Assembly (NCBI GenBank): GCA_052327205.1
Contig: CM126208.1
Coordinates: 200,694,001 to 200,758,000 of the forward strand
Source of the DNA: Somniosus microcephalus
Taxonomy: Eukaryota
Length of the DNA stretch: 64,000 nt
Direction: 5' to 3'
This document shows positions 2,604 through 64,000 of the stretch, piece by piece. The notes below the pieces were generated by a model. That model searched no databases. It was not told where the DNA came from and saw nothing but the letters and a program-made list of their open reading frames with translations. Position numbers and translations under genes: made by a program. Position 1 is the first letter of the stretch; the number at the start of each line of letters is the position of its first letter.

Positions 2604-2685
2604 TTCCTTAGTGATTTTGATTGTGTTTAGCTCCTCCCCCCCATAGCCCCCTGTTTGTCCAGTGTTGGGATATTCTTAGTGTCTT

Positions 2686-4023
2686 CTACTGTAAAGACTG
2701 ATACAAAATATTCAGTGTTTTTGTCATCTCCATATTTCCCACCATTAATTTCCCGGTCTCATCCTCTAAGGGACCAACATTTACTTTAGCCACCCTTTTT
2801 CTTTTTATATAACTATAAAAACTTGTACTATCTGTTTTTATATTTTTTGCTAATTTACTTTCATAATCTATCTTCCCTTTCTTAATCAATCTTTTTGTTA
2901 TTTTTTGCTGTCTTTTAAAGTTTTCCCAATCCTCTATCCTCCCACTAGATTTGGCTACCTTATATGCCCCTGCTTTTAGTCGAATACGATCCTTAATTTC
3001 TTTACTTAGCCACGGATGGCTGTCTTTTCTTTTACACCATTTTCTTCTCAGTGGAATATATATTTTTTGGAAGTTGTAAAATAACTCCTTAAATGTACAC
3101 CACTGATCATGTATCGTATTACCCTTTAATCTATTTTCCCAATCCACTCTACTCAATTCCACTCTCATACCTTCATAGTCTCCTTTATTCAAGCTTAGCA
3201 CGCTTGTTTGAGATCCAACCTTCTCACCCTCTAATTGAATATGGAATTCAACCATGTTATGGTCACTCATTCCAAGGGGATCCTTTACTAGGACATTTTT
3301 AATTAATCCTGTCTCGTTACACAGGACCAGATCTAAGGTTGCTTGCCCCCTGGTCGGTTCAGTTACATACTGCTCAAGAAACCCATCCCTAATACACTCA
3401 ATGAACTCATCCTCAAGGCAGCCCTGCCCAATTTGATTTGTCCAATTAATATGATAGTTAAAATCCCCCATAATTATAGATGTTCCCTTATTACAAGCCT
3501 CAACTATTTCCTGATTGATACTCCGTCCAACAGAGTTGCAACTGTTCGGAGGCCTATAGACTACGCCCACTAGTGTTTTTTTCCCCTTATTATTCCTTAC
3601 CTCCACCCAAACTGTTTCATTATCCTGATCTTTTGACCCAATATCATTTCTCTGTATTACAGTGATTCCTTCCTTTATTAACATAGCCACCCCACCGCCC
3701 CTTCCTTCCTGCCTGTCCTTCCTGATCGTTAAATAACCTGGTATGTTTAATTCCCAGGCATTGTCACCCTGCAGCCATGTTTCTGTAATGGCCACAAGAT
3801 CATACCCATATGTAGTTATTTGTGCCATTAACTCGTCTATTTTGTTACGAATGCTACATGCATTCAGATAGAGAACTTTCAAATATGTTTTGTGACACTT
3901 AGTTCCTGCTTTTGCCCTTTTTATTACTTTACCTTTTACTCCATACCTTCTGCCCCTTCCTGACACGCTCAGGTTTTTAATTTCCCCACTGCTACCTAAG
4001 TCTATGACCTTCTCTGTTGTCAT
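2686..4023 (-). CDS. CR1 ORF2 N-terminal apurinic endonuclease region (frameshifted before the RT)
   Basis: YLNA.SI, ITETWL, YRPPN, GDFN, LDLVL and SDH motifs. Confidence 0.88.
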   Translation of the reverse strand: MTTEKVIDLGSSGEIKNLSVSGRGRRYGVKGKVIKRAKAGTKCHKTYLKVLYLNACSIRNKIDELMAQITTYGYDLVAITETWLQGDNAWELNIPGYLTIRKDRQEGRGGGVAMLIKEGITVIQRNDIGSKDQDNETVWVEVRNNKGKKTLVGVVYRPPNSCNSVGRSINQEIVEACNKGTSIIMGDFNYHINWTNQIGQGCLEDEFIECIRDGFLEQYVTEPTRGQATLDLVLCNETGLIKNVLVKDPLGMSDHNMVEFHIQLEGEKVGSQTSVLSLNKGDYEGMRVELSRVDWENRLKGNTIHDQWCTFKELFYNFQKIYIPLRRKWCKRKDSHPWLSKEIKDRIRLKAGAYKVAKSSGRIEDWENFKRQQKITKRLIKKGKIDYESKLAKNIKTDSTSFYSYIKRKRVAKVNVGPLEDETGKLMVGNMEMTKTLNILYQSLQ

Positions 4024-4061
4024 TTTTATTATTTGCTCTCTAGGAACCTCCCCCCCACTAG

Positions 4062-4967
4062 TTAGTTTAAAGCCCTCTCTACAGCCCTAGTTATATGATC
4101 CGCCAGGACTCTAGTCCCAGCACTGGCCAAGTGAAGCCCATCCCAACGGAACAGCTCCCTCCTGCCCCAGTACTGGTGCCAGTGTCCCAGGAAGCAAAAC
4201 CCATTTCTCCCACACCAGTCTTTGAGCCACGCATTTAACTCTCTAATTTTATTTGTCCTAGCCAAATTCGCTCGTGGCTCAGGTAATAATCCAGAGATTA
4301 TTACCCTTGAGGTTCTGTTTTTTAATTTGACCCCTAGCTGCTCATACTCCTTTAACAGAACCGACTTCCTAGTCCTATCTACGTCGTTTGTACCAACATG
4401 GACCACGACAACTGGATCCACCCCCTCCCACTGCAAGTTTCTTTCCAGCCCAGAGGAGATGTCCTTAACCCTGGCACCGGGTAGGCAACACAGCCTTCGG
4501 GACTCTCGCTCTCGGCTGCAGAGAACTCTATCTATCCCCCTAATAATACTATCCCCTACCACTACAACATTTCTATTTACTCCCCCCTCTTGAATGGCCC
4601 CCCGTTCCACGGTGCTGTGGCCAGGTTGCTCATCCTCCCTGCAGTCCCTGCTCATGTCCCCACAGGGAGTAAGAACCTCGAACCTGTTGGACAAGAGCAA
4701 GGGCTGCGGCTCCTCCAGCTCTACCTCCTGCATCCCCGTACCTGCCTCACTCGTAGTCACACCGTCCTGTCCCTGGGCTACATCTGAATTAATTAACTTC
4801 ATAGGTGTGACCACCTCCTGATACACAGAGTCCAGGTACTTCTCCCCCTCCCTGATGTGTCGCAGTGTCTGAAGTTCAGACTCCAGCTCATCAACACGGA
4901 GCTGGAGTTCCTGTAGCAGCAGACACTTGTCACAGACGTAATCACTGTGAGCCTCAATGGGGTTCAC
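4062..4967 (-). CDS. CR1 ORF1 protein (zinc-finger remnant, coiled coil, SGNH/GDSL esterase domain), 5'-truncated
   Basis: YVCDKC, then a leucine-heptad region, then VVGDS, CLPGA, HVGTND and DGLHL, which are the SGNH blocks typical of CR1 ORF1. Confidence 0.88.
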   Translation of the reverse strand: MNPIEAHSDYVCDKCLLLQELQLRVDELESELQTLRHIREGEKYLDSVYQEVVTPMKLINSDVAQGQDGVTTSEAGTGMQEVELEEPQPLLLSNRFEVLTPCGDMSRDCREDEQPGHSTVERGAIQEGGVNRNVVVVGDSIIRGIDRVLCSRERESRRLCCLPGARVKDISSGLERNLQWEGVDPVVVVHVGTNDVDRTRKSVLLKEYEQLGVKLKNRTSRVIISGLLPEPRANLARTNKIRELNAWLKDWCGRNGFCFLGHWHQYWGRRELFRWDGLHLASAGTRVLADHITRAVERALN

Positions 4968-4970
4968 CGG

Positions 4971-7339
4971 CTCCTAGAGTGTATACGGGATGGTTTCCTG
5001 GACCAATATGTCAAGGAACCAACTAGAGATCAGGCCATCTTAGACTGGGTATTATGCAATGAGAAAGGATTAATTAGCAATCTTGTTGTGCGAGGCCCCT
5101 TGGGGAGGAGTGATCATATGATAGAATTCTTTATTAAGATGGAGAGTGAAGTAGTTGACTCAGAGACTAGGGTACTGAATTTAAATAAAGGAAACTACGA
5201 TGGTATGAAGTGCGAGTTGGCTAGGATGGATTGGGAAACGATACTTAAAAGGTTGACGGTGGATAGGCAATGGCAAACATTTAAAGATCGTGTGGATGAA
5301 CTACAGAATTTGTTCATCCCTATTTAGCATAAAAATAAAATAAAAAAGGAGACTCAACCATGGCTAACAAGGGAAATTAGGGATAGCATAAGATCCAAGG
5401 AGAGGACATATAAATTGGCCAGAAAAAAACAGCAAACCCGAGGATTGGGAGCAGTTTAGGATTCAGCAAAGGAGGACAAAGGGATTAATAAAGAGGGGGA
5501 AAATAGAGTGAGAGTAAGCTTGCAGGGAACATAAAAACTGACTGTAAAAGCTTCTATAGATATGTGGAGAGAAAAAGATTGGTGAAGTCAAGCGTAGGTC
5601 CCTTGCAGTCAGAATCAGGAGAATTTATAATGGGGAACAAAGAAATGGCTGACCAATTAAATAGATACTTTGGTTCTGTCTTCACAAAGGAGGACACCTC
5701 CCAGAGATGTTGGAGAACATAGGGTCTAATGAGAGGGAGGAACTGAAATCAAATCAGTATTTGTAGGGAAATGGTGTTAGGGAAATTGATGGGATTGAAG
5801 GCCAATAAATCCCCAGGGCCTGTTAATCTACATCCTAGGATACTTAAGGAAGTGGCCCAAGAAATAGTAGATGCATTGCTGGTCATCTTCAAAAATTCTA
5901 TAGACTCTGGAACAGTTCCCATGGATTGGAGGGTAGCTAATGTAACCCCACTATTTAAAAAAGGTGGTAGAGAGAAAACGGGGAATTATAGACCGAAGCC
6001 TGACATCGGTAGTGGGGAAAATGCTAGAGTCCATTATAAAAGATGTAATAGCAGAGCACTTGGAAAGCAGTGACCGGATCGGACAAAATCAACATGGATT
6101 TACAAAAAGTAAATCATGCTTGATTAATCTGGAATTTTTTGAGGATGTAACTGTTAGGATAAGGGAGAGCCAGTGAAGGTGGTGTATTTGGACTTTCAGA
6201 AGGCTTTCGGTAAGGTCCCGCATAAGAGATTAGCGCGCAAAGTTAAAGCACATGGGATTGGGGATAAGGTACTGACTTGGATAGAGACCGGTTTGGCAGA
6301 CAGGAAGCAAAGAGTTGGAATAAACGGGTCTTTTTCCGAGTGGCAGGCAGTGACTAGTGGGGTACCGCAGGGATCGGTGCTAGGACCCCAGTTATTCACA
6401 ATATATATTAATGATCTAGACAAGGGAACTAGATGTAATATCTCCAAGTTTGCAGACGACACAAAGCTGGGTGGGCATGTGTGCTGTGAGGAGGATGCAG
6501 AGAAACTCCAGTATGATTTTGACAGGTTGGGTGATTGGGTAGATGCATGGCAAATGCAGTATAATGTGGATAAATGCGAGGTTATCCACTTTGGTGGCAA
6601 AAACAGGAAGGCAGATTATTATCTGAATGGCAACAGATTGGGAAAAGGGGAAGTGCAACGAGATCTGGGTGTCCTTATGCACCAGTCGATGAAGGTAAGC
6701 ATGCAGGTGCAGCAGGCGGTTAAGGCGGCAAATGGTATGTTGGCCTTCATAGCGAGAGGACTCGAGTACAGGAGCAAGGATGTCTTGCTGCAGTTGTACA
6801 GGGCCTTGGTGAGACCACACCTTGAGTATTGTGTGCAATTTTGGTCACCTTATCTGACGAAGGATGTTCTTGCCATGGAGGGAGTGCAGCGAAGATTCAC
6901 CAGACTGATACCTGGGATTACAGGAATGGCATATGAAGAGAGATTGGGTTGATTAGGCTTATATTCACTAGAGTTTAGAAGAATGAGAGGGGATCTCATT
7001 GAAACGTATAAAATTCTAATGGGACTAGACAGACTAGATGCAGGAAGGATGTTCCCGATGGCGGAGGAGTCCAGAACCAGGGGTCACAGTCTAACGATAA
7101 GGGATAAGCTATTTTGGACTGAGATGAGGAGGAATTTCTTCACCCAGAGAGTGGTGAACTTGTGGAATTCTCTACCACAGAAGGCAGTTGAGGCCAATTC
7201 ATTAAATATATTCAAGAAGGAGTTAGATATATTTCTTAAGGCTAAGGGGATCAAGGGATATGGGGAGAAAGCAGGGACAGAGTACTGAATTTGGCTCGAG
7301 GGGCCGAATGGCCGACTCCTGCTCCTATCTTCTATGTTT
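4971..7339 (+). mobile_element. CR1 LINE, right part (ORF2 RT and 3' tail), frameshifted
   Basis: Resumes at LECIRDGFLDQYV. RT ORFs at 5771-6952. 3' tail ggctcgaggggccgaatggccgactcctgctcctat. Confidence 0.9.
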
Positions 7340-7340
7340 C

Positions 7341-7737
7341 AACCCCCATCCTTGCTAATCTAGATTGGCTCTCAGTACCTCAACATCACAAATTTGAAAT
7401 TCCCATTCGTGTTCTAATCACTTCAATGCCTCACCCACCCTCTCTCAGTAACCTTCTCCACCCTACAACCTCCCCTGTTCCTCGGACTCCAGCCCCTTGA
7501 GCATCCCTCCCTCCTTTTGGCCCACCATTGACAGCTCTGCCTTCAGCAACATAGGCCCTACTCTCTAAAATTCACCCCCAAAGCCCCAACTCCTTGTTCA
7601 AGGTTCTCCTTAAAACCCACCTCTTTGACCAAGCTATTATCTCCTTCTTTGGCTCAATGTCCATCTTTTCCTTATTGCTCTGAAGTGTTATGGGATATTT
7701 TCTACATTAATGAAGCTATACAAGTGCAAATTGTTGA
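7341..7737 (+). mobile_element. L2-like LINE 3' end
   Basis: cacctctttgaccaagct and the terminal ...gctatacaagtgcaaattgttg match the L2 3' ends at 21870-22190 and 18396-18810. Confidence 0.65.
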
Positions 7738-8121
7738 TATCGAATTAGCCGTTCCAATTGCTTTATGCACCTACAAGGAAATTTTTAATGACTTGTGTAC
7801 CTTGACCCATGAATTCCTTTGTTCATCTACCTCATACCACTTCCCCATCTACCATTTTTGTATTCAAAGTGCACTGCTTCATACTTCTTTATGCTAAACT
7901 GCTTCTGCAAGCTTCCTCTCTGCTTTTTTGGCTTATGTTCATTTAAACTTTTCTGCTCTGTTCTTCTCAATCCAGTAGTAACTTGGTTTTTCTCATTTTT
8001 TCCCCCAAAAGCTCTCTTTTACCCAGATATTTATTTGGGCTTCAGATTCTCAGATCACTTCTGTAGATGAGCCCTGCTTCCCCATGTCAGAGTGTGCTGG
8101 CATTTGCTCAGTTATCTAGGT

Positions 8122-8663
8122 CAGTGGTTCTCAAATTTTTTTGGTTGGAGGACCTCTTTTCAAAATCGATTAGTAATCACGGACCCCCACCTAAATTATA
8201 GTACTATATAATACTCATAATATGAAAGTCCTGCAAGTACTGTAAAGCGTGTTTTAATAATGCTTTTAAGTAAATAGGTACTTACTTACGTATCAGTGAG
8301 ATGCGTCTACCTGCCAATTGTAGTCACTCTCAGCACTCCTCCACGCACACACCCTTCCTACGCGAGACAGCCAGTCCACTCAGCACGGCACATTTGGCGA
8401 CTGCACTCTGCACCCGCCACACACCAAGCCCACATTCTTTCAGCCACCGTCTCCCCGGCCTGGCCGCGCATGCAAATTGGTAAACGCAACAGCAGCAGCG
8501 CTGCTTATGTTAGTCAGAGAGTAAGCAAATGAGCAGCGGCTGGAGGCTGGCTTGGTGCGAGCGGATTGTGGCCGCCACGTTCCGTAAGGCCAGCCCTGCT
8601 CTGTACTCTTGTTATTTTGCAGACCCCCGGAAAGTTCTACGGACCCCAGTTTGAGAACCACTG
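8122..8663. mobile_element. hAT (Charlie-like) MITE
   Basis: 14-bp TIRs CAGTGGTTCTCAAA / TTTGAGAACCACTG. 8-bp TSD atctaggt / atccaggt (7 of 8 match). Confidence 0.9.
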
Positions 8664-8915
8664 ATCCAGGTACATTTGTTGCATTACTGGGGACTGCAAC
8701 AACTATCCACTTTATTTTGGCTTACTGGTTTTTATCATGTACCCTCACATGATCTTCCTCGACTTCGGAACAAAACTCAACACTGCTCTAGACTGCGACT
8801 TAGGTTTCAACTGTTGAACAAATTTATTAAACGGTAAAAGAATAAGTGAAAAGCATCAATGACAACATAGATTTTACAACAGTTAAATTAACATCTCACT
8901 CCTGATATTCACTTT

Positions 8916-8991
8916 CAGATTAGCCAGGATCTCTCTGAATGGTGGAACAGGCTCGAGGGGCTAAATGGCCTACTCCTGTTCCTATATTCCT
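8916..8991 (+). mobile_element. CR1 3' tail fragment
   Basis: gaatggtggaacaggctcgaggggctaaatggcctactcctgttcctat is the CR1 3' terminal motif. Confidence 0.7.
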
Positions 8992-11900
8992 AGTTTTCTT
9001 AAATAGTAAACAACTATTAGTCATGATTGCTGAGCTAAACTATGCATTATGCAGCCTATCTATTTCAGTCCATAGAAGCTATTTGGTCTGACTACTAATC
9101 CACAAATGTTACTCTGTCCAATTTGAACCAGTAAGGTTGAGAAAAAAATTCCAGAAAAAGATCAAGACGAAACACATTTAAATAATTGCATTTTTTTAAA
9201 TTTAGAAAATAAAACTGCCAAACACATACTTGAAGAAATCCACAAAATGTTTGTATTTGTCTTGACCCATCCTTTGGACACCTGGTTGAGATAAAATGAA
9301 AATCAGTTGCATCAATATAAACCAAAGCATGCATCTCCTGTGATTTTTAAATACCTTATGTATCATGATGGAAGAAGCCATGCTAAATCATATGCCACAG
9401 TCCTTGCCTCCTTTTTTCAATAAAGGTGTAACTTTTACTGCTTTTCGAAGCTCTGGTACTATCCCAGAATGTAGTAATTTTGAACGAATTCATCCTCATC
9501 TTCTAACTAAATATGGGACAAATTCTAAAACCTGAAGATTTAACAGCAATCGCACATTGATGGAGGATACAGCTTTCTAAAGCCTGCAACATCTTTTAAG
9601 CCATACTTACTAGATCTGATATTTTTCAAGTGACAAGTCTACAAATACAGCAAAAAAGTAACACGTTTTAAGCCTTGGTCACACATAAACTATTATAAAA
9701 TAATCTGTCTGTAAAACATGTATTATATCAGATTAGAGATGTGTTAAAATGATGTCCTCTTATTTTTAAATTAGTTTTGTGTATTCATTATTGATAACAC
9801 AACTCTACACAAATAACATTAAAAAGTTCCACCAAATATCAGATTAAAAAAAAACTAGATTAGAAACAATACATAGTGATTTTTGCAGGTGTATTATATT
9901 AGAATTATAAACTGGAAATTGTCAAGTACATACACTTCCAAAATAAAATTCACGTAATATTCACAACTTGTATGCCCTGCTTCTATAGGCACAAGTACAA
10001 AAACCAAGTTAAAACTTTAAAAATTCAGATTTTCTGATTAATTACAGCATTTCCTACATGTGTTTTAACACCATCACAAAGACAGCTGTATAGTAATGTC
10101 CTAAATAAAAGCACTAGTTTATTAAAATTATACACTAAATCTTGCCGTTTATTAACAATTCCAGAATCTTACTGTACAAAGAAATGATTACAAAGTTAGG
10201 TATATTGCTAAACAGAAACCTGTAAAAGGTTCTAGCTTCTGCCTTGCCTAGGTCTACCTGGAAAATGTCTTTACTGCTGAAATAACAATACCCCTGTAAA
10301 ATAGAAACCCACTGATTCATAGTATTTTAAATGCACTACTCAGTAAATCTAGACCTAAATTAGCAGAGGACTGTGTAAAATATTATAATGTAGAAATTAT
10401 TCAAGCAATTCTATTATCTGCTATATTAAAATATACAGTAGAGTCAATAATCACTGGATATACAAAAATGAAAAATATTTTCAATCTATTAGATCTTCCA
10501 TGATTGCTCATGTGTAGTCTAAAGCCTGTCGTCAAGTAATTGACATTCTGACGGTCCTGCACTGAGGCATTAGGCAGACACTTAAATCACTGCTATTGTA
10601 ACTCAATGAATTCCACAGCCGATTCAGCTTCAGGGAACATATGTCAAATTGGCACAGTGCAAGCTAGAAGGTGTAGTCCCAGCCACAGGCTAAAAGTGGC
10701 AATCTAGCTGATGCCTGGCAGTCAAGTTGAAGGCTAGTGCGAGTCTTGGGTCTTGATAGGGAGCCTTGCAATTTGGCTTGTTTATTTCTATTGTACATGG
10801 ATTTGTGGCATTTATACTTTTAAGAGGACAGAAATGTCATTTTTAAGACAATGTAAGGGGGCGGGTGAGAAACTTATCGCTGTGGCTGTATCGTGGGAGA
10901 ATGCTTTTTGCTGCAATGGGATTAGGCAGTTTTTTGCTGTACTGTGATTGGGGACTTTGAGGAATATGATTGGAGAGAAAATTTAAATTTGGGAGAAAGG
11001 TTTGTGCAATATGATTCATGAATAACAAATGTTGAAAATAACAAAGAAAAAACACAAACTTAATGAGGGAAAAGAAAAGGTACTTAAACAATGAGGAAGA
11101 CATTTAGCCAATGAGGCAAAAGAAAACTGACTTACATTCACAACAGACGCTACAATCACTAAAGACACAAAATTTTATTATATAGACTTACATAGACCCA
11201 ACAGCGTTCTTATAAAACCAGAGTAAATGCAATACAAACAATTTTCTAATAAAATGCCTTGCACCAGAAGTCCTTTGATGCAAGTAAAAGAATCAGTGCC
11301 ATCATTAGTTAACAGGATATCACAAATGAAATTTATAGTTAAATACAACTGCCAACTAAATATAGCATAAGCTGGCAGTAAAGTGTGAACATTTTTGAAA
11401 ACGACCTTCAACTTAATCATGGAGGGGGAGGGGTCACTAGGTGTCCCTTTACAACCCTAGTAGGCAGTGATGACTAAGGTTCCGAAATTCGATCAGGCCC
11501 ACTGCTGAACTGGGATGCATCGCCCTATGGGGATCTGGAAAATGCAATAAAACTGGGTCCACCGGGATTCCACTCCATGTTTTCTCCTCTCCTTTTTCCA
11601 GTGCTGCCCCTGCCGCACCATGTCCCCATTACATCAAGTTTGCATATTCGGGGGAGGTCCTGGGCTACTCCAGGAATTCCACCCATTATGTCCTCCACAG
11701 GCTTCAGCTGTACTTGCGCCCAAGAGGCCTACTTGCAGTGGCAGAGCAGACAGTCAGGAATTTCATGCCCATACCTTTTTCTATACTGCATGGTTATTCC
11801 GACATTGTTCATTGTAGCGTACAAGGTTTTACTGTGAACAACTTTTGCCATCCCGAGAAATTTTGGGCAGGCAAAAAAGCAGATAGAGTGCGGTGTGCAG

Positions 11901-12250
11901 CAGGGTCCTGCTAATTCAGCAGACCTCTAGGAAAGATGTGCTTATATAGAATAACTGTACAGTTTGGGGGGGGGGGGGGGGGCAGGAACTTAATTTTAAG
12001 CAGTCTCAAAAAAAAAGCAAGGAGTGTCAGTTTGGAGAAACCACTAGCTGCCAAGTTAGGTCAGCTAAACACATGGAATGTGGCTCATATTCAGTTTGTA
12101 CATGTAGATTACACAATTTGGTTACTTGCTTGATGAACTGCAGTTTGGCAAAAAAAAGAGGGCTGAAGTTGTCTGTCTCGCTTCACATTCAGTTCTTCCT
12201 TCTTCAAAATATTTGATATACTGGGCTGCTTAGATGGTTCACCATATAAT

Positions 12251-12516
12251 TTAGTCTGAAATGGAAGGAGAGTTTAGAGACCGCCCACTAGCCGGGCTGT
12301 TTGTAAAAGTAAACAGGTCTTTTTCTTTGTCTTTCCCATCATGTTTGTGTTTATGCTTATGCTTGTGTTTATGCTTTTTCTTCTTTTTCTTGTGTTCATG
12401 ATGGTGGTGATGGTGATGTTCCCCATGTCTCGATGAGCTGGACTCTTTGCCAAGTGAAGGAAGTGGGGTAGCTGGCATGGAAATCATGGCAGTTTCTATG
12501 GCTGGTGTTTCTTTTC
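12251..12516 (-). CDS. TAF2: TAF2 terminal coding exon (His/Lys-rich C-terminal tail)
   Basis: Translates (G)KETPAIETAM...HHHHHHHEHKKKKKKHKHKHKHKHKHDGKDKEKDLFTFTNSPASGRSLNSPSISD*, matching the vertebrate TAF2 C-terminus. Acceptor ...ttttcatAG at 12518-12517, phase 1. TAA at 12253-12251. Confidence 0.96.
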
Positions 12517-12800
12517 CTATGAAAATAGTACACAATTATACTTTTTTAAATTCACACTGCTTACTATTTATGTGCATCTCACACACACACACTTACTTAT
12601 ATTTATGGTAGTCATACTATAAATACCAGTTGCTCAAGATCTTGTTCTAAAGCCAGCTGATATTGAAATAAAACAAATATATTTTGCCAACTATATGTTG
12701 ACCTCAAAATACAATTTGAATGAGCGGAGAGCTTCATTCAGCAAAACAGTGATATTATTATTGCACAATCCATTGAATCCATATTTAATTAGCAGTTGCA

Positions 12801-12832
<32 letters not shown>

Positions 12833-12839
12833 TTCTTGC

Positions 12840-12959
12840 CTTTTTTCTTTGTTCCTTTCCTGAGTTTTATCTCTTTGCTGGGATTCAATTCCACATGCAG
12901 CAGTCTACTATCTTACTGAAGTGACCATTATACATGCGTGTACCTCGATAATGAGTGAA
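12840..12959 (-). other. TAF2: candidate TAF2 cassette (poison) exon, 120 nt, GC donor, two in-frame stops
   Basis: Acceptor tgagCAG at 12961-12960; donor AAAG|GCAAGA; phase 1 at both ends. Reads VHSLSRYTHV*WSLQ*DSRLLHVELNPSKEIKLRKGTKKK(G). Confidence 0.4.
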
Positions 12960-13082
12960 CTGCTCATTCAGTAGAGACAATAAATACACACACAGTCACA
13001 TACATTAGCTTACTGTAACTCTGAGCACCACTTGGTCCCTTTTCCCACATTTAATGTAGCAACTTGTTCAGATTTCTCTCAC

Positions 13083-24947: not shown

Positions 24948-25589
24948 ATATTTTCACTTCAACAGTTTGCAACATTAATTTTGAAATGAAACAGAAGATT
25001 AACTCACCACCATAATGAAATTATATTTTAACACCTCCAGTACTTAACTGCCACAGTATACATTAGTCGTATTTTCCAAACAGCTTTAATTACTGATAAA
25101 ACAGCAAACTAACCAAGTTTCAGAACTGATAAAAACAGGATATACACACGCACTTAAGCTGAGGACATGTTCACCAAGTGTAATTAAAATCTATATGGCA
25201 GGCAGGGGTATCGTAAGCTGCCAGCAATCTCCCAATAACTTTTACAGACTCATTAATTCTTGTACATTAAGAGTAACAAAGCAAAAAAAAAAAATCAGCT
25301 TTACCGCAAGAAGATACCATAAAATAAGTTTATGTGCAAGGCTCTGCTAATTAGCCAAGTGTTGTGAAACAGTGCATTAGTAATGCTGGAAGACTTTGTG
25401 CAACAATAATCACAGAACAAATCAAGAGGCCCTGCTAAATCCCAGCTGTGCCACTTGTTTTCTGAGCAGAAAGAAACTGTGTAGCCCTATGTATAGGATA
25501 ACACAAAGGCTGGATTGTGTTACAAGGCAGTAACACTTCAAGGAGGTTGAGATGGTCAAAAACCATAAGAGAAATTGGAGCACTTTGTC

Positions 25590-26300
25590 GTTATCTTGAC
25601 GGCAAGAGTAGACAATGGTAATGCAGTAGATGTAATTTATCTGGATTTTCAAAAGGCCTTCAATAAGGTACCCCATATTAGACTGATGAACAAGGTCAGA
25701 GAATGTGGAGTCAGGGGACAAGTAGCAGAATGGATTGCTGGCTGGCTTCAGGACAGAAAGCAGAGAGTAGGAGTAAAGGGGTAGCTATTCAGTGGCAGGT
25801 GAGTAGTGGTGTTCCACAAGGATCAGTGCTGGGACCACTGCTGTTCACAATTTGCATTAACGATTTAGATTTAGGAATCAAATACACAATTTCTAAATTT
25901 GCAGATGACACCAAATTGGGGGGGTAGTCAATACTGAGGAGGACTGCAACAAATTACAGGAGGACATTAATTAACTTACAGAATGGGCATATAATTGTCA
26001 AATGAAGTTCAACACAGATAAATGTGAGGTATTGCATTTTGGTAGGAAGAATAGGGAGGTCACTGGTCACTTGGAGGGGGGGGGAGTCTAGGTGGGGTAG
26101 AGGAGCAAAGGGATCTCGGATTACAAATACACAAATCACTAAAAGTTGTGACACAGGTTAGCAATGCCATAAGAAAAGCAAACCAAGCACTAGGGTTTAT
26201 TTCTAGAGGTATAGAATTGAAAAGTAGAGAAGTTATGCTAAACCTGCATCGAACCTTGGTTAGACCACACATAGAGTACTGCGTACAGTTCTGGTCGCCA
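25590..26300 (+). mobile_element. CR1 RT fragment, left of the Helitron insertion
   Basis: [21 protein letters not shown]; ends at ...VQFWSP. Confidence 0.88.
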
Positions 26301-27399
26301 TCTATCTATCTATCTATATATATATATAAATCGGTACTTCTGTCTGTCTGTCATCGCGTGTGCGTCTGTCGGGTATGCGCTCAAAAGTTACAGGGCGTAC
26401 CTATGCGCGCGTTACCTCCAAAGAAAGCTTACGCTTCCGAGACGGTTTTAAGCGTATTTACGTTTCGGCCGGGCTAAAATCGCGCCCGCGGTATCCCAAA
26501 AACCTTAACATTCCGCTCATTAGCATCTCATTATCCGCTCATCAGCGACAGAGTGACCTCGAGCTCGACCAATCGTACGCCGGGTTGCTGGCGTGTGCCG
26601 CCGGGCCAATCGGTGCGTGTGTGGCCGGGCCTTATCCTTCTGAACCGAGGTGAGTCGCCACCATCTTGATTCCAAACTTTTCCTTTCTTTTTCCCGCTTT
26701 CTGCGTCTTAAAAAAAAACGTTGCTTTTAAAACACATATTGTATTTAAAAAAATTTAGAAAGTAATTAACTTATCTAATCTCATTAATTTTCCTACCTTT
26801 CCCCGTTTTTCCAGGTAGGCCTAGAAGCCTCGGCGTCTCCTCTGCACCCACGCCCGAGCTAGGCACCTCCCGGCCCCAGTCAAAGGCTGGAGGGCCGAGC
26901 CTCAGCCCAGCGCCGCTAGGGTGCGCGCGCAGCAGGAGCTGAGACGCGGCGTCTTGCTCTGGCTCGGCCGGGGCTTGCTGAGCGTCGACGGTTACCCTGG
27001 CAACCTGCCCCGCCGGCCGTCTCGCACAGCCGCAATCGGCGGTCTTCACCTCGGGGGGGGGGGGGGGGGGGGGGGCCGCGACCCTCGGAGGGGGGGGGGC
27101 CGCGACCCTCGGAGGGGGGGGGGCCGCGACCCTCGGGGGGAGGGGGCCCGCGCGCGCAGCAGCTGAGACGCGGTATCTCTCTCTCTGGCTCGGCCGGGGG
27201 GCGGGGCTTGGTCAGCGTCACGGTTACCCTAGCAACCGGGCCTGCCGGCCGAGCCAGAGAGAGACGCCACGTCTCACCTCCTGCTGCGCGCGCAATCGGT
27301 GGTCTTCACCTCGGGTGGGGGGGCTGCGACCCTCGGGGGGGGGGGGGCCGCGACCCTCCCCTCCCCCCCTTCCTCCCCTCTCCCCCCCGCCCCTCCCTC

Positions 27400-27971
27400 C
27401 CCCCCAGTCGCTCTCTCTTCCCCCCCTCCCCCCCAGTCGCTCTCTCCCTCCCCCCCCAGTCGCTCTCTCTCTTCCCCCCCCAGTCGCTCTCTCTCTTCCC
27501 CCCCCAGTCGCTCTCTCTCTTCCCCCCCCAGTCGCTCTCTCTCTTCCCCCCCCAGTCGCTCTCTCTCTTCCCCCCCCAGTCGCTCTCTCTCTTCCCCCCC
27601 CCGTCGCTCTCTCTCTTCCCCCCCAGTCGCTCTCTCTCTTCCCCCCCCAGTCGCGCTCTCTTCCCCCCAGTCGCTCTCTCTCTTCCCCCCCAGTCGCTCT
27701 CTCTCTTCCCCCCAGTCGCTCTCTCTCTTCCCCCCAGTCGCTCTCTCTCTTCCCCCCAGTCGCTCTCTCTCTTCCCCCCAGTCGCTCTCTCTCTTCCCCC
27801 CAGTCGCTCTCTCTTCCCCCCAGTCGCTCTCTCGCTTCCCCCCAGTCGCTCTCTCGCTTCCCCCCAGTCGCTCTCTCGCTTCCCCCCGTCGCTCTCTCGC
27901 TTCCCCCCAGTCGCTCTCGCTTCCCCCCAGTCGCTCTCTCTCTTCCCCCCAGTCGCGCTCTCTCTCTCTTC
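27400..27971. repeat. Minisatellite, about 21-23-bp unit (CCCCCCCAGTCGCTCTCTCTCTT)n, inside the Helitron
   Basis: Tandem array read directly from the sequence. Confidence 0.95.
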
Positions 27972-28430
27972 CAACAACATGCCCTCGAAAAAGCCTCGGC
28001 ACCGCCGGGCACTTCAGCTAGTCTATATATAAATGTCTCTCTGTCTGTCTCTCTGTCCAGCTATACAATCAAAAGTTATAGAGCGTACCTACACATATGT
28101 TATATCAAAAGAAAGCTCATCATTAGGGGACTCTTGTAGGCGTATTTACTTTTTGGTCGGACAAAAATTGTTCGCACATTATACAAAAAACCTTCAAAAT
28201 TCCACTCATTAGCATTGACTGACATCAAGGTCGACCAATCCTGTGCCGTGATGATTGACCAATCCTGCAGTTCAGTCACCTGATGGTTGACCAATGTGTG
28301 GGCGGGACTCAGGGATCTGGCAGCCATTGCCTCAAGCTAAAAACCCCATTGCCTCAACCTAAAAATATGCTCATCGAGGTTAGTATCTTATTTTTTTTGA
28401 AAAAGATTTACCAAAAATGTTTTATAAGTA

Positions 28431-28848
28431 CAGGTAGACTACCCTTTATTTGAACTTCCGAAAACCGAAACCCTCTAAAAACCGAAGGTTTTTCCGTTCA
28501 GCGTAAGTCGTGCGCACGACCCCCCGCCGACCCCGACCCCCACGCGGACCCCCGCCAGCGCCGACCCCCGCCGACTTACGCTGAGCGTCAGCGTAAGTCG
28601 TGCGCACGACCCCCCTGCGGACCCCCGCCGGCCCCGACCCCCGCCGACCGTAAGTCGTCGGGGTCGGGGCCGGCAGGGGTCCGCGGGGGGGGTCGGGGCC
28701 GGCGGGGGTCCGTGCGCACGACTTACGCTGCGCGTCAGCGTAAGTCGTGCGCACGACCCCCCGCCGACCCACCTTCCGAAATCCGAAATTCTCCAAAAAC
28801 CGAAACACGGCTGGTCCCGAGGTTTTCGGATAAAGGATAGTCTACCTG
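28431..28848. mobile_element. Tc1/mariner (Tigger4/pogo-like) MITE nested in the Helitron
   Basis: TIRs CAGGTAGACTACCCTTTAT / ATAAAGGATAGTCTACCTG (18 of 19 match) with a TA duplication. The empty site is seen in the paralogous Helitron at 47874-47875. Confidence 0.92.
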
Positions 28849-29021
28849 TACTTTAACTTTCATCTTTTAAGGTATTAAAAGCTAGAAATGTTTAGGTTAA
28901 AAAAAGTGCAAAACAGGCAGAGGCTTCTCCAACTGCTGACAGCCCAAATCCAGTCCCAGGCTCCCGGCCCACACATCCACCAGCCCCAAAATTGCCCTGC
29001 AACGCGGGGCTCCCCTGCTAG

Positions 29022-29505
29022 TATTATAAAAAGGATATAGAGGCACTGGAGAGAAGATTTACAAGGATGATGCCAGAAATGCGAGGGTATACATATCAGG
29101 AAAGGATGAACAGGCTGGGTCTCTTTTCCCTTGAAAAAAAGGAGGCTGAGGGGTGACCTAATAGAGGTCTTTAAAATTATGAAAAATTTTGATAGAGAAT
29201 GTTTCCACTTGTGGGGAAGAGCATAACTAGAGGCCATCAACATAAGATAGTCAGCAAGAAATCCAATAGGGAATTCAGAAGAAACTTCTTTACCCAAAGA
29301 GTGGTGAGAATGTGGAACTCGCTACCATAGGGAGTGGTTGAAGCATTTAAGGGGAGGCTAGACAAGCATGAGGGAAAAGGGAATAGAGGTTTATACTGAT
29401 AGATTTGGATGAGGAAAGACGAGAGGAGGCTCGTGTGGAGCATAAATGCCAGCATGGACTGGTTGGGCTGAATGGCCTGTTTCTGTGCCGTAAATCCAAT
29501 GTAAG
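29022..29505 (+). mobile_element. CR1 3' part, right of the Helitron insertion
   Basis: YYKKDIEALER..., RRNFFTQRVV, and a 3' tail gggctgaatggcctgtttctgtg. Confidence 0.85.
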
Positions 29506-30688
29506 ATGTGTTAAAACCTTGAAACATGCTCCATAACATAATTCTTTACAATTTATACATAGATGGAGTTGTGGAAGCACTCTCTCAATTTTTATAAAGT
29601 GCTGAGTTTTTATTGCTTTTGCCAGTACCCATGAACGATTCCTTCAGCCATCCCCCATGAACACAGGATGTTTGGGTTACCTGTTAGCTCCAGCATTCAA
29701 TGGTCAGTCGAGAGAGCCTAGGAGCAGTAATGATCAAAGACACCTGTGCGCGTACTCTCAAAATGGCTGTGCACAGGCCTCAGCAGCGTCACTAAGTTTT
29801 CAACAGATGAAGAGAGCATTTTTGGGGAGCTCGGATTGCCTTCTTCCTCCAGCTGTGGAAGGCCTCCAACCCTGCACAGCAAGTCTCTGCTCCCAATTTG
29901 GTGCAATTCCCTAGCAGAGAACCAGGAGAATAAGAACCAACAGATACTGAATTGCAGGTGAAGTTGATGAGTGGTTATCGAAGAGGTGCTGCAATATATC
30001 GTAGGGCCACTCTTCATTTTTGTCCCAGCTTTTGCTAGGCCTCTAATGGGGCAATTCCTGAAAGCGGTCTTAGTACCCCAAAGCAGTTTTGATCATATAA
30101 AAATGGCCAATTGACTAACTGCTGGCACACAGCATTCGGGTACCCTTGGCACACCCAGTGCTTGGAGGCACACAAAAATATTCAAACTAGCTGACAATGC
30201 ATTATTGGGCAAAGTCAGCTCAGCTGGGCGCAGGTACAGCCAGTGCATTATTCGTCGAGGCTCTGGCACCACTGCACCAGACCGCATTATTGGTCCCATT
30301 GTGTTTCCTTATGAATTGCAGCTGCATAAATATGTTTACATTCTATTTCTCTAGAACAGCAAATAAAGATATGTCCAATACAAAGCTGTATAAAAACAAG
30401 CATGGCACAAATGGTAATCAACTGAGGAAGGGAAAAAACACTCATCGTAAACAACACTTAATTCAGAATTTGTATTTAGTGCATAAAAACCTGAAAAAAT
30501 GAATTTGTTTTATTTTATTAAACTTGTGGCTGGGTAACCGTACAGTCAGTATTGTAGCCCAACAGCATAAATGAAAGCTGCAATTTCCATTAGGCATCTC
30601 TCTCTCCCCCACACACAATTTCTCCACAGGATCCAAAACTTTATCAGTAGTCACGTGATTGCTTTGTACTTTATCAGATATTTCTAAC

Positions 30689-43574: not shown

Positions 43575-43630
43575 CTAGCTGGAGTGCCCAGCGGTGCCGA
43601 GGCTTTTTCGAGGGCATGTTGTTGTTGGAA

Positions 43631-44228
43631 GGGGGGGAGCCGAGCGCGGGCGACTGGGGGGGAGCCGAGCGCGGGCGACTGGGGGGGAGCCGAGCGCGGG
43701 CGACTGGGGGGGAGCCGAGCGCGGGCGACTGGGGGGGGAGCCGAGCGCGGGCGACTGGGGGGGGAGCCGAGCGCGGGCGACTGGGGGGGGAGCCGAGCGC
43801 GGGCGACTGGGGGGGGAGCCGAGCGCGGGCGACTGGGGGGGGAGCCGAGCGCGGGCGACTGGGGGGGGAGCCGAGCGCGGGCGACTGGGGGGGGAGCCGA
43901 GCGCGGGCGACTGGGGGGGGAGCCGAGCGCGGGCGACTGGGGGGGGAGCCGAGCGCGGGCGACTGGGGGGGGAGCCGAGCGCGGGCGACTGGGGGGGGGG
44001 AGCCGAGCGCGGGCGACTGGGGGGGGGAGCCGAGCGCGGGCGACTGGGGGGGGAGCCGAGCGCGGGCGACTGGGGGGGGAGCCGAGCGTGGGCGACTGGG
44101 GGGGGAGCCGAGCGCGGGCGACTGGGGGGGGAGCCGAGCGCGGGCGACTGGGGGGGGAGGCGAGCGCGGGCGACTGGGGGGGGAGGCGAGCGCGGGCGAC
44201 TGGGGGGAGGCGAGCGAGCGACTGGGGA
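43631..44228. repeat. Minisatellite, about 25-bp unit (GGGGGGGAGCCGAGCGCGGGCGACT)n
   Basis: Tandem array read directly from the sequence; CpG-rich. Confidence 0.95.
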
Positions 44229-45480
44229 GGGGGGGGAAGGGAGAAAGGGAGGGGGGGGAGAAAGGGAGCGGGGAGCCAGCGGATCCTCTCCCCTCTGCCG
44301 GCGATGGCTCCGCAGAGCTCCGTGCCGCCCCACGCACTGACATGGCCCAGCCGAGCGCAGCGCCCGTCAGCCTGAGCCCCGCCCTCCCGAGCCCCGGCTT
44401 CAAGACCGCCGTTTGCGGCTGGGCCTGCGCTGGAGCCAAGCCCTGCCAACGGGCGTGAGCTGGCTAGAGGCTGAGAGGGGACCGGGCCCGGTTGCCGGGG
44501 TAACCCTTCCCCCCACCCCTTCCCACTCTCCCTAGCACCGGCCCCCCGAGCCCCGCCCTCCCGAGCACCGGCCCCCCCGCCCGAGCCGCGGTTGGGGGGG
44601 GGGGGGGGAAAAGGAGAGAGCGCGCCGCCGCCCGTCCGGTCGATGTGTTGCGGGCCGACCCCCGATGAGTGCCCGATCAGCTGAGTCCGAGCCCCGCGGT
44701 GACCGCAACTCACCTCCCGCTAGGCTCCCTCCCGCGCCGCCAGCCTTTACCAAAATGGCGGCTATGGCTACGCTCGGCCCAGTCCCGCGCCGCCAGCCTT
44801 TACTAAGATGGCGGCGATCGCGGGGCGGGCCCAGCGGGATGGGCGGTGCCTAGCTCGGGCGTGGCTGGGCAACAGAGGCCCAGGCTTCCAGGCCTGCAAA
44901 AACGGCGAAAGGTAGGAAAATTATAGAGGTTAGAGAAAAGATTGACAAATTAATTAACTTTTTTAAAAAACAATGTGTGTTTTAAAAGCAACTTTATTTT
45001 TGCTGGAAATCTAGATTTGAAAAGAAACACGCAGAAAGTGGGAAAAAAAAACTTACGAATCAAGATGGCTGACACTCACCTCAGTTCAGAATGATAAGGC
45101 CCGCCCACACCCATTGGTCAACCGCCAGGTCACTGAACTATAGGATTGGTCAATCATCACGTCACTGAACTCTAGGATGGCCTGCCCGCACGCACAATGA
45201 ACCCACCCCCACTTGATGCTAATGAGCGGATAATGAGCGGAATTTAGAAAGTTTTTTGGATACCGTCGGCACAATTTTTTTCCGACCAAAAAGTAAATAC
45301 GCCTACAAGAGTCCCCTAATGATGAGCTTTCTTTTGATATAACATATGTGTAGGTACGCTCTATAACTTTTGATTGTATAACCGGACAGACAGACAGAGA
45401 GAGAGACATACTGTTTTATATATACTAGCTGAAGTGCCCGGCGGTGCCGAGGGATTTTTGAGGGCATGTTGTTGTTGGAA

Positions 45481-47512
45481 GAGAAAGGGAGAGCGAGAGT
45501 CTGGGGGAAGAGAGAGAGCGAGAGTCTGGGGGGGAAGAGAGAGCGCGCGCAAGAGTCTGGGGGGGGGGGAAAGAGAGAGCGCGAGAGTCTGGGGTGGAAG
45601 AGAGAGCGCGAGAGTCTGAGGGGGAAGAGAGAGCGAGAGTCTGGGGGGAAGAGAGAGCGAGAGTCTGGGGAGGAGGGAGAGAGAGAGCGAGAGTCTGGGG
45701 GGAGAAGAGACAGAGAGAGCGAGAGTCTGGGGGGAGAAGAGACAGAGAGAGCGAGAGTCTGGGGGGAGAAGAGACAGAGAGCGCGAGCGTCTGGGGGGAG
45801 AAGAGACAGAGAGAGCGAGAGTCTGGGGAGAGAAGAGACAGAGAGAGCGGGAGTGCGAGAGCCTGGGGGGGAAGAAAGAGAGCGAGAGTCTGTGGGGGAA
45901 GACAGAGCGCGAGAGTCGGGGGTGGGGGGGAAGAGAGAGAGCGAGAGTCTGGGGGGGGGGGAAAGAGAGAGAGCGAGAGTCTGGGGGGGAAGAGAGAGAG
46001 CGAGAGTCTGGGGGGGAAGAGAGAGAGCGAGAGTCTGGGGGGGAAGAGAGAGAGCGAGAGTCTGGGGGGGAAGAGAGAGAGCGAGAGTCTGGGGGGGAAG
46101 AGAGAGAGCGAGAGTCTGGGGGGGAAGAGAGAGAGCGAGAGTCTGGGGGGGAAGAGAGAGAGCGAGAGTCTGGGGGGGAAGAGAGAGAGCGAGAGTCTGG
46201 GGGGGAAGAGAGAGAGCGAGAGTCTGGGGGGGAAGAGAGAGAGCGAGAGTCGGGGGGGAAGAGAGAGAGCGAGAGTCTGGGGGGGAAGAGAGAGAGCGAG
46301 AGTCTGGGGGGGGGAAGAGAGAGAGCGAGAGTCTAGGGGGGAAGAGAGAGAGCGAGAGTCTGGGGGGGGAAGAGAGAGAGCGAGAGTCTGGGGGGGAAGA
46401 GAGAGAGCGAGAGTCTGGGGGGGAAGAGAGAGAGCGAGAGTCTGGGGGGGAAGAGAGAGAGCGAGAGTCTGGGGGGAAGAGAGAGAGCGAGAGTCTGGGG
46501 GGGAAGAGAGAGAGCGAGAGTCTGGGGGGGGAAGAGAGAGAGCGAGAGTCTGGGGGGAAGAGAGAGAGCGAGAGTCTGGGGGGGAAGAGAGAGAGCGAGA
46601 GTCTGGGGGGGAAGAGAGAGAGCGAGAGTCTGGGGGGGAAGAGAGAGAGCGAGAGTCTGGGGGGGAAGAGAGAGAGCGAGAGTCTGGGGGGGAAGAGAGA
46701 GAGCGAGAGTCTGGGGGGGAAGAGAGAGAGCGAGAGTCTGGGGGGGAAGAGAGAGAACGAGAGTCTGGGGGGGAAGAGAGAGAGCGAGAGTCTGGGGGGG
46801 AAGAGAGAGAGCGAGAGTCTGGGGGGGAAGAGAGAGAGCGAGAGTCTGGGGGGGAAGAGAGAGAGCGAGAGTCTGGGGGGGAAGAGAGAGAGCGAGAGTC
46901 TTGGGAGGGAAGAGAGAGAGCGAGAGTCTGGGGGGGAAGAGAGAGAGCGAGAGTCGGGGGGGAAGAGAGAGAGCGAGAGTCTGGGGGGAAGAGAGAGCGC
47001 GAGAGTCTGGGGGGGGAAGAGAGAGAGCGCGAGAGTCTGGGGGGAAGAGAGAGAGCGCGAGAGTCTGGGGGGGGGAAGAGAGAGAGCGCGAGAGTCTGGG
47101 GGGGAAGAGAGAGAGCGCGAGAGTCTGGGGGGGAAGAGAGAGAGCGCGAGAGTCTGGGGGGGAAGAGAGCGAGAGTCTGGGGAGAAGGGGAAGAGAGCGA
47201 GAGTCTGGGGAGAAGGGACAGAGAGAGCGAGAGTCTGGGGGGAGAAGAGACAGAGAGCGAGAGTCTGGGGGGAGAAGAGACAGAGAGAGCGAGAGTCTGG
47301 GGGGAGAAGAGACAGAGAGCGAGAATCTGGGGGGAGAAGAAACAGAGAGCTAGAGTCTGGGGGGGAGAAGAGAGAGAGAGAGCGAGAGTCTGGGGAGAGA
47401 AGAGACAGAGAGAGCGAGAGTCTGGGGGGAGAAGAGACAGAGAGAGCGAGAGACTGGGGGGGAAGAGACAGAGAGAGAGACTGGGGGGGGGAAGAGAGAG
47501 AGAGAGAGACTA
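45481..47512. repeat. Minisatellite, about 25-bp unit (GGGGGGGAAGAGAGAGAGCGAGAGTCT)n
   Basis: Tandem array of about 2 kb read directly from the sequence. Confidence 0.95.
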
Positions 47513-49286
47513 GGGGGAGAGGGGCGAGAGAGGGGAGGGAGGGGGGAGAGGAGGGAGAGGGGAGAGGAGGGAGGGAGGGGCAGAGGGGGGGAGAGGGGGG
47601 AGGGAGGGGGGCGAGAGGGGAGGGGGAGAGAGGGAGGGAGGGGGTGGAGGGAGGGAGGGGGTGGAGGGAGGGAGGGGAGGGGAGGAAGGGGGTGTGTGGG
47701 AGGGAGTGGGGGAGCCAGCAGACCCTATCACCTCTGCCAGTGTTGGTCCTTGTCTGGGCCGGAAGTCTGGGACTGGAGTTGCGCTGCCGGCCGTTGGAGA
47801 GGCCGAGGCCTTGGGCCCTTGCACTGACATGGCCCAGCCTACCTTTTAATACCTTGAAACATGAAACTTAAAGTACTTATAAAACATTTTTGGTAAATCT
47901 TTCTATAACATACACTTTACAACCTCACCAATCTTTTTATTAAAAAAGGGGGTCCTCACCTGTCACTGCTGTATCACAAACAACAATGGCCGCCGCTTGA
48001 TTTTCAGTTGGAAAGATTAGGCCCCGCCACACAGTCGATTGTCTCTCCCGGGCAGTCGGACCCGATTGGGAGCACTGAAGCCCCACCCACTGTATGTTCC
48101 TGTACTAAGATGGCCGCGCATGCACTCTGTGACACACTGAATCAAAATGGCGTCGCACTGAAACTTTTCGCCCTCCTTGACAAAGATGGCTGCCGTTAAC
48201 CTGGGGCTGTCAGCAGAAGAAATGCCCTCCGCTGCAAACACGGGATCTTCAGATAATTATTCCGGGCTTGCGACCTACCCCAGTTGCTTATGAAACCTCC
48301 CCACCTACCGACCCCGGGAATGGAGCTGAGGCAGCAGACCCTCTCCCCTCTGCCAGTGTTGGTCCCTGTCTAGGCCGGGAGCCTGGGACTGGAATTGCGC
48401 TGCTGGCGGTTGGAGAAGCCTAGGCCCCGAGCCCCTGCACTGACATGGCCCCGAGAAATAAATCACATACTGGACTCATTTATTACACGCAAATTATATA
48501 ATGAGCTAGTTGGGCTCCTAAGTACCAAATGTGTGCTGGATAAAATCCCCTCCACACACACAGAAAGTGGGAAAAATAAATCAATAGTTAGTAGTTAGGA
48601 ATCAAGATGGCGGCAGGACAGGAGGTGCCTAGCTCGGGCGTGGCTGGGCAACAGAGGCCCAGGCTTCGAGGCCTGGAAAAACGGTGAAAGGTAGGAAAAT
48701 TATAGAGGCTAGAGAAAAGATTTACAAATTAATTAACTTTTTTTAAAAACAAGGTGTGTTTTAAAAGCAACTTTTTTTTTGCTGGAAATGAAGATTTGAA
48801 AAGAAACACGCAGAAAGTGGGAAAAAGAAATGAACAGTTTGGAATCAAGATGGCGGCTACTCACCTCATTTCAGAATGATAAGGCCCGCCCACACATGCA
48901 CCGATTGGTCAACCGTCAGGTCACTGAAGTGTAGGATTGGTCAATCGTCCTGTCACTTGACTCTAGGACGGCCCGCCTGCACAACGCTACGAACCCGCCC
49001 CCGTGACGCGATTGGTCGACCGTCGGGTCGCTCGACTGTACAATTGGTCAACGTTGACGTCACTCAATGCTAATGAGCGGATAATGAGCGGAATTTTGAA
49101 CGTTTTTTGGATACCGTGGGCACAATTTTTGTCTCACCAAAACGTAAATACGCTTATGACCGTTCTGGAATCGTAAGCTTTCTTTTGATGTAACGCACGT
49201 GTAGGTACGCTCTATAACTTGAGTGTGTATAGCCGGACAGACAGACAGACAGAAGGACAGAAGTACCGCTTTTATATATAGATAGA

Positions 49287-63250: not shown

Positions 63251-64000
63251 GCTCCCCATTAGAACGGAGGACCGCCCATACACCGCCTTTGAGGCGAACG
63301 GACGCCTCTACCATTTTCTCAGAGTGCCCTTCGGGGTAACAAATGGGGTCTCGGTCTTCCAACGTGAGATGGACCGCATGGTTGACGAGAATAAACTAAA
63401 AGCTACCTACCCCTATCTGGACAATGTCACTATCTGCGGGCACAACCAGCAAGACCACGATCTAAATCTTGCGAGATTTTTAAAAACTGCCCTAAAGCTG
63501 AATCTAACCTACAACGAAGACAAATGTGTCTTCAACACAACCCGTCTCTGTATCCTCGGCTGTGTGGTGGAAGATGGGGTAATTGGACTGGACCCTGACC
63601 GATTACGCCCCCTAAAGGAACTGCCCATGCCACACAATCCCAAAGCTTTAAAAAGGTGCCTGGGATTTTTTTCGTATTATGCCCAATGGGTGCCCAATTA
63701 CTCTGATAAGGCCGACCCCTCATTAAATCGACGTCCTTCCCACTATCAGCTGAAGCTCGGGAGGCTTTCACCGGTATCAAACAGAACATTGAAAGGGCTG
63801 CACTGTGTGCAGTGGACGAAAGCATTCCCTTTCAAGTTGAAAGCGATGCGTCAGACTTTGCTTTAGCTGCGACCCTCAATCAGGGTGGGAGACCTGTGGC
63901 CTTCTTGTCCCGAACCCTTCAGGGACCTGAAATCAGGCACTCTTCTGTCGAGAAGGAGGCACAGGCTATAGTGGAGGCAGTGCGGCACTGGAGACACTAC
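63251..64000 (+). pseudogene. Gypsy pol continued (RT C-terminal half and RNase H), runs off the window
   Basis: LPIRTEDRPYTAFE...VPFGVTNGVSVFQ...YLDNV, then FQVESDASDFALAATLNQ...EKEAQAIVEAVRHW. Confidence 0.9.

Follow-up and report, generated by a model that had tools for sequence, protein, structure and literature searches.

The 2.7-kb insert at positions 26301-29021 of the 64-kb stretch of DNA analysed here (the window) almost certainly consists of non-autonomous canonical Helitrons, and its two abutting units, A and B, are best explained by a two-step origin in which one copy inserted at, or just inside, the 5' end of another, a reading that we hold at a probability of about 0.5. Movement of the two units as a composite is possible at this locus (locus 1); sequential insertion fits the observations at least as well.

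The Helitron insert interrupts a LINE precisely

Locus 1 lies within a decayed LINE, the two parts of which were delimited by tblastn with paralogs from the window:

25575-26300, plus strand: upstream portion of a decayed CR1-like LINE ORF2 (reverse transcriptase), ending in ...CCA at the insertion point
29022-29504, plus strand: continuation of the LINE ORF2 (YYKKDI...) and its 3' end

The outer junctions of the insert read A26300|TC26301 on the left and CTAG29021|T29022 on the right, with no target duplication of 2-20 nt at the flanks, and this reading bears out the 2.7-kb insert with a TC start, a CTAG end and no target site duplication (TSD) proposed in an initial annotation of this DNA. 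The LINE halves around the insert translate as ...QFWSP and YYKKDI..., the frame picking up at the next codon, and when the protein of a LINE ORF2 paralog from the window was compared with the flanks by tblastn, residues 1-67 matched 26100-26300 and residues 68-195 matched 29022-29369. As these two blocks abut across the insert, no host sequence has been lost or doubled, and the annotated cut in the CR1 frame at CCA|TAT (FWSP|YYKKDI) is upheld by the translated halves and the paralog alignment alike. The same motif runs unbroken through four other LINE copies of the window, which provide the empty site for locus 1. Given the continuous paralog alignment and these four uninterrupted copies, we conclude that insertion into the LINE is precise. 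Frameshifts and stops of its own mark the host copy as old and broken, and its CpG observed/expected ratio is 0.22-0.27 versus 0.55-1.67 in the Helitron heads. Behind 29504, loose contig ends accumulate in all four sequencing runs compared (X1, X6, X22, and X23).

One LINE ORF2 paralog of the window matches the Pfam family RVT_1 (E = 3e-32). With this match and a GDSL-esterase ORF1 elsewhere in the window, the host LINE probably belongs to the CR1 clade. A fairly well preserved CR1-like LINE with a GDSL-esterase ORF1 and long endonuclease and reverse transcriptase frames occupies 1446-4973 on the minus strand. The four best named relatives among 31 matches to a LINE ORF1 protein of the window came from the stingray Hemitrygon (79%), the catshark Scyliorhinus, the chimaera Callorhinchus, and the sawshark Pristiophorus, which is consistent with a cartilaginous-fish host, an indirect assignment made by way of a transposon protein. 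Gag-, protease-, and reverse transcriptase-like frames of a Gypsy-type LTR retrotransposon, broken by LINE copies, were recognized by eye in the list of open reading frames at 58874-60425 and 63252-63866 (both plus strand), and a frame at 53591-54547 (plus strand) is a putative Penelope-type reverse transcriptase with a GIY-YIG remnant.

Units A and B are related but distinct Helitrons

The insert comprises two related non-coding Helitrons arranged end to end, meeting in a CTAG|TC junction at 28021/28022:

26301-28021, plus strand: unit A, non-autonomous Helitron of 1,721 bp, defined by its ends and anatomy, with no Pfam match for its longest frame and no Rfam match
26922-27294, unstranded: inverted repeat inside unit A, away from its ends, with 92% complementarity between its arms at 26922-26971 and 27245-27294 (repeat scan)
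27386-27965, plus strand: CT-rich minisatellite of unit A, 22-nt unit in 24 copies over 27429-27965 (repeat scan)
28022-29021, plus strand: unit B, a further non-autonomous Helitron from the group of unit A, 1,000 bp long with a nested element included, recognized by head comparison

Unit A opens with a head of three TCTA units and TC(TA)n, and continues with a GC-rich body, the minisatellite, and a terminator that we term A-type. The second head, TCTATATATAAA, starts right after the CTAG at 28018-28021, in agreement with the annotation. Behind the heads, the CCAAT-like motif GACCAATC and the motif GGGCGG recur at 26551-26640, 28217-28310, and, in a further unit described below, 49060-48880; these could be candidate promoter elements. 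The longest frame of unit A had no match in Pfam, no Rfam family matched within the insert, and the long frames within the units are minisatellite translations, the insert having no notable coding frame. The open reading frames listed for the 64-kb window include no long frame of the size of RepHel, and the repeat scan found no terminal inverted repeat on the Helitron units.

Canonical Helitrons (HLE1) are defined by a 5' TC, a short GC-rich hairpin some 10-15 nt from the 3' end, a CTRR terminus, insertion between A and T, and the absence of a TSD and of terminal inverted repeats (PMC11417382, PMC12001565), with further description in PMC13286980. The ends, the A|T target, the lack of a TSD at locus 1, the absence of a RepHel frame from the window, and the LINE ORF1 relatives together support the annotated assignment to a non-autonomous Helitron in a probably chondrichthyan host. 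HelibatN of Myotis and Heli1Xen1 of Xenopus likewise combine a TC start in a TATATAAA-type head with a hairpin and CTAG, A|T insertion, no TSD, and no coding capacity; the GCC-stemmed hairpin of A and B, which ends 7 nt before CTAG, is unlike that of Heli1Xen1. Membership of the HLE2 group (Helentron/Helitron2, DINE-1 type) was considered and rejected, as the targets are A|T and not T|T and the ends carry no terminal or subterminal inverted repeats.

The two terminators differ yet resemble one another

The two units of locus 1 end in different structures:

27993-28021, plus strand: internal A-type terminator, intact, with a 7-bp GC stem carrying one bulged T, a 3-nt loop, 7 nt, and CTAG; identical at 28 of 29 nt to the end of unit C and at 27 of 29 to that of unit D (below)
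28994-29021, plus strand: outer B-type terminator, a hairpin with one T.G pair, 7 nt, and CTAG (sequence and run contigs)

The internal hairpin spans 27993-28010 and is followed by 7 nt and the CTAG at 28018-28021, just as annotated. At 28998, about 69% of contig depth has one extra C in the B-type hairpin; by inspection, this extra C would make the B hairpin 18 nt long with a bulged T, as in A, except that a C-G pair takes the place of one G-C. Aligned over their last ~30 nt, A and B agree at 21 of 30 positions, a likeness equalled by 44 of 20,000 shuffles and by 249 of 20,000 random GC hairpins of like geometry (CTAG excluded). The outer hairpin is therefore different yet similar, and its description as unrelated does not hold. 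Constraint common to Helitrons may account for part of the likeness, as a GCA[AT]CGC core with a 6-8 nt spacer is also present in the 3' consensus of maize (PMC3288121); the B end matches this core and spacer and the A end is one letter off. Under the rule applied in Myotis, which sets different ends at 20% over 30 nt (PMC4778049), the B end would count as a different end. The folding energies of the A and B hairpins are unremarkable (z = -1.39 and -1.43), and for the last 50 nt of B another stem is predicted as the best fold.

A second stacked pair is present in the window

The terminator pattern derived from A and B has four matches in the window versus 0.01 expected, two of which are new and belong to the units of a second pair (locus 2):

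45425-49286, minus strand: unit C, 3,862 bp, with a TCTA-TCTATATAT head after A49287, a long CT-rich minisatellite, and an A-type terminator (ends, repeat scan)
43575-45424, minus strand: unit D, 1,850 bp, with a head that starts TATATATAAAAC without TC and an A-type terminator, followed by T43574 (ends)

Read along the minus strand, locus 2 is laid out as A49287, C with its CTAG, D with its CTAG, and T43574; the pair sits in the 5' region of a LINE, the end of D lying 14 nt before the ATG of ORF1. No empty-site paralog of locus 2 was found in the window, and the 2-nt TA match flanking the locus, seen without an empty-site comparison, is unavoidable in its TA|TA context. An A|T target is present at both outer sites (2/2), and all four units end in CTAG with a hairpin of 17-18 nt finishing 11 nt from the end. 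Units A, B, and C start with TC (3/4) and D with TA, the count becoming 4/4 if the outer TCTA is taken as the start of D. A strict stem scan of the window found the ends of A and C, missed those of B and D (T.G pair), and matched two unrelated sites. Members of the Helitron family occupy 13% of the window.

Arrays related to the minisatellite of unit A also precede the A-type terminators of C and D; that of C extends over 2.2 kb, and C contains an internal duplication as well (48451-48340 versus 47835-47724, 87%). The TC(TA)n head is preceded by additional TCTA units in A (three, 26301-26312) and in C (one, 49286-49283), which could stem from slippage or be left over from an insertion into a head.

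Comparison of the head cores revealed identities of 100/139 for A and B (72%), 129/139 for B and D (93%), and 116/139 for C and D (83%). The bodies of A and B differ and B has its own terminator; the head-to-tail dimer of the initial annotation is thus correct in that two Helitrons abut, but they are related units and not copies of one monomer. Rolling-circle concatemers of a single element would be expected to have a CTAG|TC junction, and no run contig spans the whole stretch (the contigs being short and compared over 27970-30600), so that a misjoined assembly also has to be weighed. Either origin is very improbable in view of units that have 72% identity in the head and differ elsewhere, of a host frame that continues across the insert, and of a second pair in which other sequences form a junction of this kind. 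Because the units are non-identical in both pairs (A/B heads 72%, C/D heads 83%, differing bodies), the concatemer itself was ruled out.

The units also share segments in changing combinations. The head of B matches D, its middle follows C to ~28975 (30/30 nt identical at 28402-28431, then 73%), and it then has its own end; all four units are mosaics. This would suit an origin of the pair without a second transposition, in which dispersed copies, or a genomic copy and a circle with a CTAG-TC junction, underwent recombination or gene conversion, and Helraiser circles do have precise end-to-start junctions (PMC5876387). We consider this origin unlikely, as it requires a pre-existing junction and leaves the TCTA and the missing TC at locus 2 unexplained.

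Unit B carries a nested MITE

A further element interrupts unit B:

28431-28848, unstranded: nested non-coding element of 418 bp with terminal inverted repeats (TIRs), TA duplicated at 28429-28430 and 28849-28850 (TIRs, empty site, run contigs)

Its TIRs are alike at 18 of the first 19 nt, its empty site is found in the paralogous stretch of unit C at 47860-47902, which has a single TA, and one contig of X22 and three of X23 jump 420 nt at 28427-28848. The element, which has a GC-rich palindromic core, is a MITE of the Tc1/mariner or pogo type. By the look of its ends, it is a candidate member of Tigger4/Zombi. Tigger is listed for Chondrichthyes with TIRs of 18-23 bp and TA (PMC9219625), and the nested element shares the short TIRs and TA duplication of Tigger/pogo and other Tc1/mariner MITEs; it has no transposase. 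Its ends reach 42,000-152,000 times single-copy depth in X22 and X23 (of the order of 10^5) and are near zero in X1 and X6, and the element may therefore be a second young family.

The Helitron heads are abundant in two sequencing runs

Contigs of four of 24 runs (X1, X6, X22, and X23), all of them short, were compared over 27970-30600. Over 1,132 nt of unique flank, those of X22 and X23 are identical to the window, at depths of 16.9 and 8.7; the two runs are perhaps from the source sample and are not independent. Relative to single-copy depth, the head had a summed depth of ~78,000 in X22 and 135,000 in X23; the corresponding values were 2,400-7,100 for the B body and ~4,400-13,000 copy-equivalents for the B end, bearing in mind that summed depth is no copy number. 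As the B end occurs at thousands of copy-equivalents, it was not acquired at locus 1, where the annotation had placed the gain of a new terminator; such a gain may instead have occurred at the origin of the B subfamily, the body of which follows C before its own end begins. X1 differs in the flank at 18 of ~620 letters (~3%) and has a head ratio of 2, and X6 has one of 0.02 (at 85% likeness, over 27970-28145); holes in these comparisons prove nothing, about 55 in 100 being read for X1 and 72 in 100 for X6, with filter losses. Both runs have the LINE bin at a high level, 95,000 (X1) and 68,000 (X6) times single copy. For the terminator bin, X1 reaches ~16 times single-copy depth, suggesting that a few related ends may exist there. 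We do not read the contrast of four orders of magnitude in the heads as a count; it is a lead towards a young expansion restricted to one lineage. No contig of the four runs bridges 28021/28022 or 29021/29022 within the region compared, the exact terminator and head patterns had no match in metagenome or viral contigs, and a peptide across the C-D junction had 0 matches among predicted proteins.

Sequential insertion and composite movement as origins of the pairs

In the two-step origin that we prefer for locus 1, B would have inserted first at a host A|T, and A would then have inserted at the new A|T that arose where the host A met the opening T of the B head, both units being mobilised by a RepHel transposase presumably encoded outside the window. 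This order is favoured because it needs only canonical A|T targets, whereas the reverse order needs G|T. The insertion of C at locus 2 would have hit the head of D four bases from its start (TCTA|TATATAT), which would explain the extra outer TCTA and the missing TC of D together. The family would prefer a TA-rich target, A|TATTATA, seen at both host sites and similar to its own TC(TA)n start, and as such a target resembles the family head, resident heads could act as hotspots. We infer both the order of events and this preference.

Several observations bear on the target. Both host targets give ATATTATA, which is found at 5 of the 8,218 other A|T sites of the window. The 10 nt behind all four CTAG ends include 9-10 A/T, which is true of 8.6% of A|T sites; the AT preference of Helraiser is likewise strongest on the 3' side (PMC4778049). 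AT-rich sites number 11 in the four heads versus 707 elsewhere in the window, and AT-richness alone would therefore send ~1.5% of insertions to heads; yet both loci (2/2) are stacked, a count biased by the choice of locus 1 for being stacked. A tighter preference is thus needed, and a tight target is suggested by two sites noticed after the fact.

The sequential reading is supported by the intact state of both internal terminators (A and C); in multi-terminus Helitrons of maize, by contrast, CTAG is missing from 99 of the 100 internal 3' ends sampled (PMC3288121). It is further supported by the abundance of B's own end and by the fact that the units are not copies of one monomer and the internal junctions are placed differently relative to the head, at CTAG|TCTATA between A and B and at CTAG|TATATA between C and D. 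Against it, the three extra TCTA units in the head of A are unaccounted for, barring slippage or earlier rounds, and the inner heads B and D, both behind an A-type terminator, are identical over 101 nt, which is the pattern of an inherited junction.

This last observation speaks for the possibility that A and B met once at a donor site and were then copied as one unit through the internal terminator (terminator bypass), a plausible, if less than even, alternative in which the terminator-plus-head junction is an inherited block, present also in the C-D pair. Polarity is alike at both loci, ~200 nt across the two junctions are alike apart from microsatellite letters, and B and D share changes relative to the outer heads in CpG-type decay (8 of the 21 columns in CpG context, against 5 of the other 83). 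A master pair would also explain why both loci are pairs, bypass of intact ends has been shown for Helraiser in ~11.7% of events (PMC4778049), and a compound Helitron element is known in bats (PMC4224331). However, each locus has its own outer head (A versus C, 82% alike), its own bodies and minisatellites, and its own outer end, so that extensive recombination must be added. B-like heads and A-type ends are each very common (summed depth ~1.1-1.3 million, X22), making a repeated meeting weak evidence; the presence of the B/D head in both inner slots has a chance of 1 in 6 among four units; and the internal terminators are undecayed, in contrast to those of maize. CpG content had been considered as an age ranking of A versus B and was dropped in view of the identity of B and D over 101 nt, which suggests that head differences mirror master lineages and not time in place.

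Relation to known Helitrons and significance

Stacking of Helitrons is already known from bats and maize. In Myotis, one Helitron abutting another and new 3' ends are both reported, with 39 of 395 copies having new ends by any route (PMC4778049); new ends are thus a minority there, whereas both loci of our window are stacked and share a head-like target. Head-to-tail junctions and arrays are known in plants and bats (PMC5876387, 10.1101/2024.11.21.624632), and in maize helA, multiple termini arise from nesting in 28.7%, internal termini being explained by nesting and then remobilisation (PMC3288121). The elements described here differ from those of maize in their intact internal ends, and no captured gene fragments were seen in them. 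For cartilaginous fishes, records include Helitron-1_CM of Callorhinchus milii, a class tally with Helitrons in 4 of 8 genomes, and an HLE1 row for the shark Carcharodon (PMC11417382), which place the group to which our elements belong in this class of fishes. A dogfish paper names Helitrons only in its references (PMC10468316). A literature search on titles and abstract openings in journals outside subscription found no report of this family, of a shark or ray that has undergone a large burst of Helitrons, or of a Helitron targeting its own head.

A broader scenario, which we offer as speculative and on balance doubtful, is a very recent Helitron burst on the scale of that in bats in a cartilaginous fish (~10^5 copies, and almost none in a relative at 3% divergence), with a target, A|TATTATA, that mimics the family's own 5' end. 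Copies would then routinely land on heads, stack, leave (TCTA)n relics, generate chimeric subfamilies, and spread minisatellites and a passenger MITE. If true, such self-targeting would provide a sequence-level reason for adjacent Helitron insertion and multi-terminus elements. A young expansion to ~10^5 copies, if true, would contrast with the picture of the elephant shark genome as LINE-dominated with few DNA transposons (PMC5381603, PMC6817897), and would raise the question of horizontal transfer.
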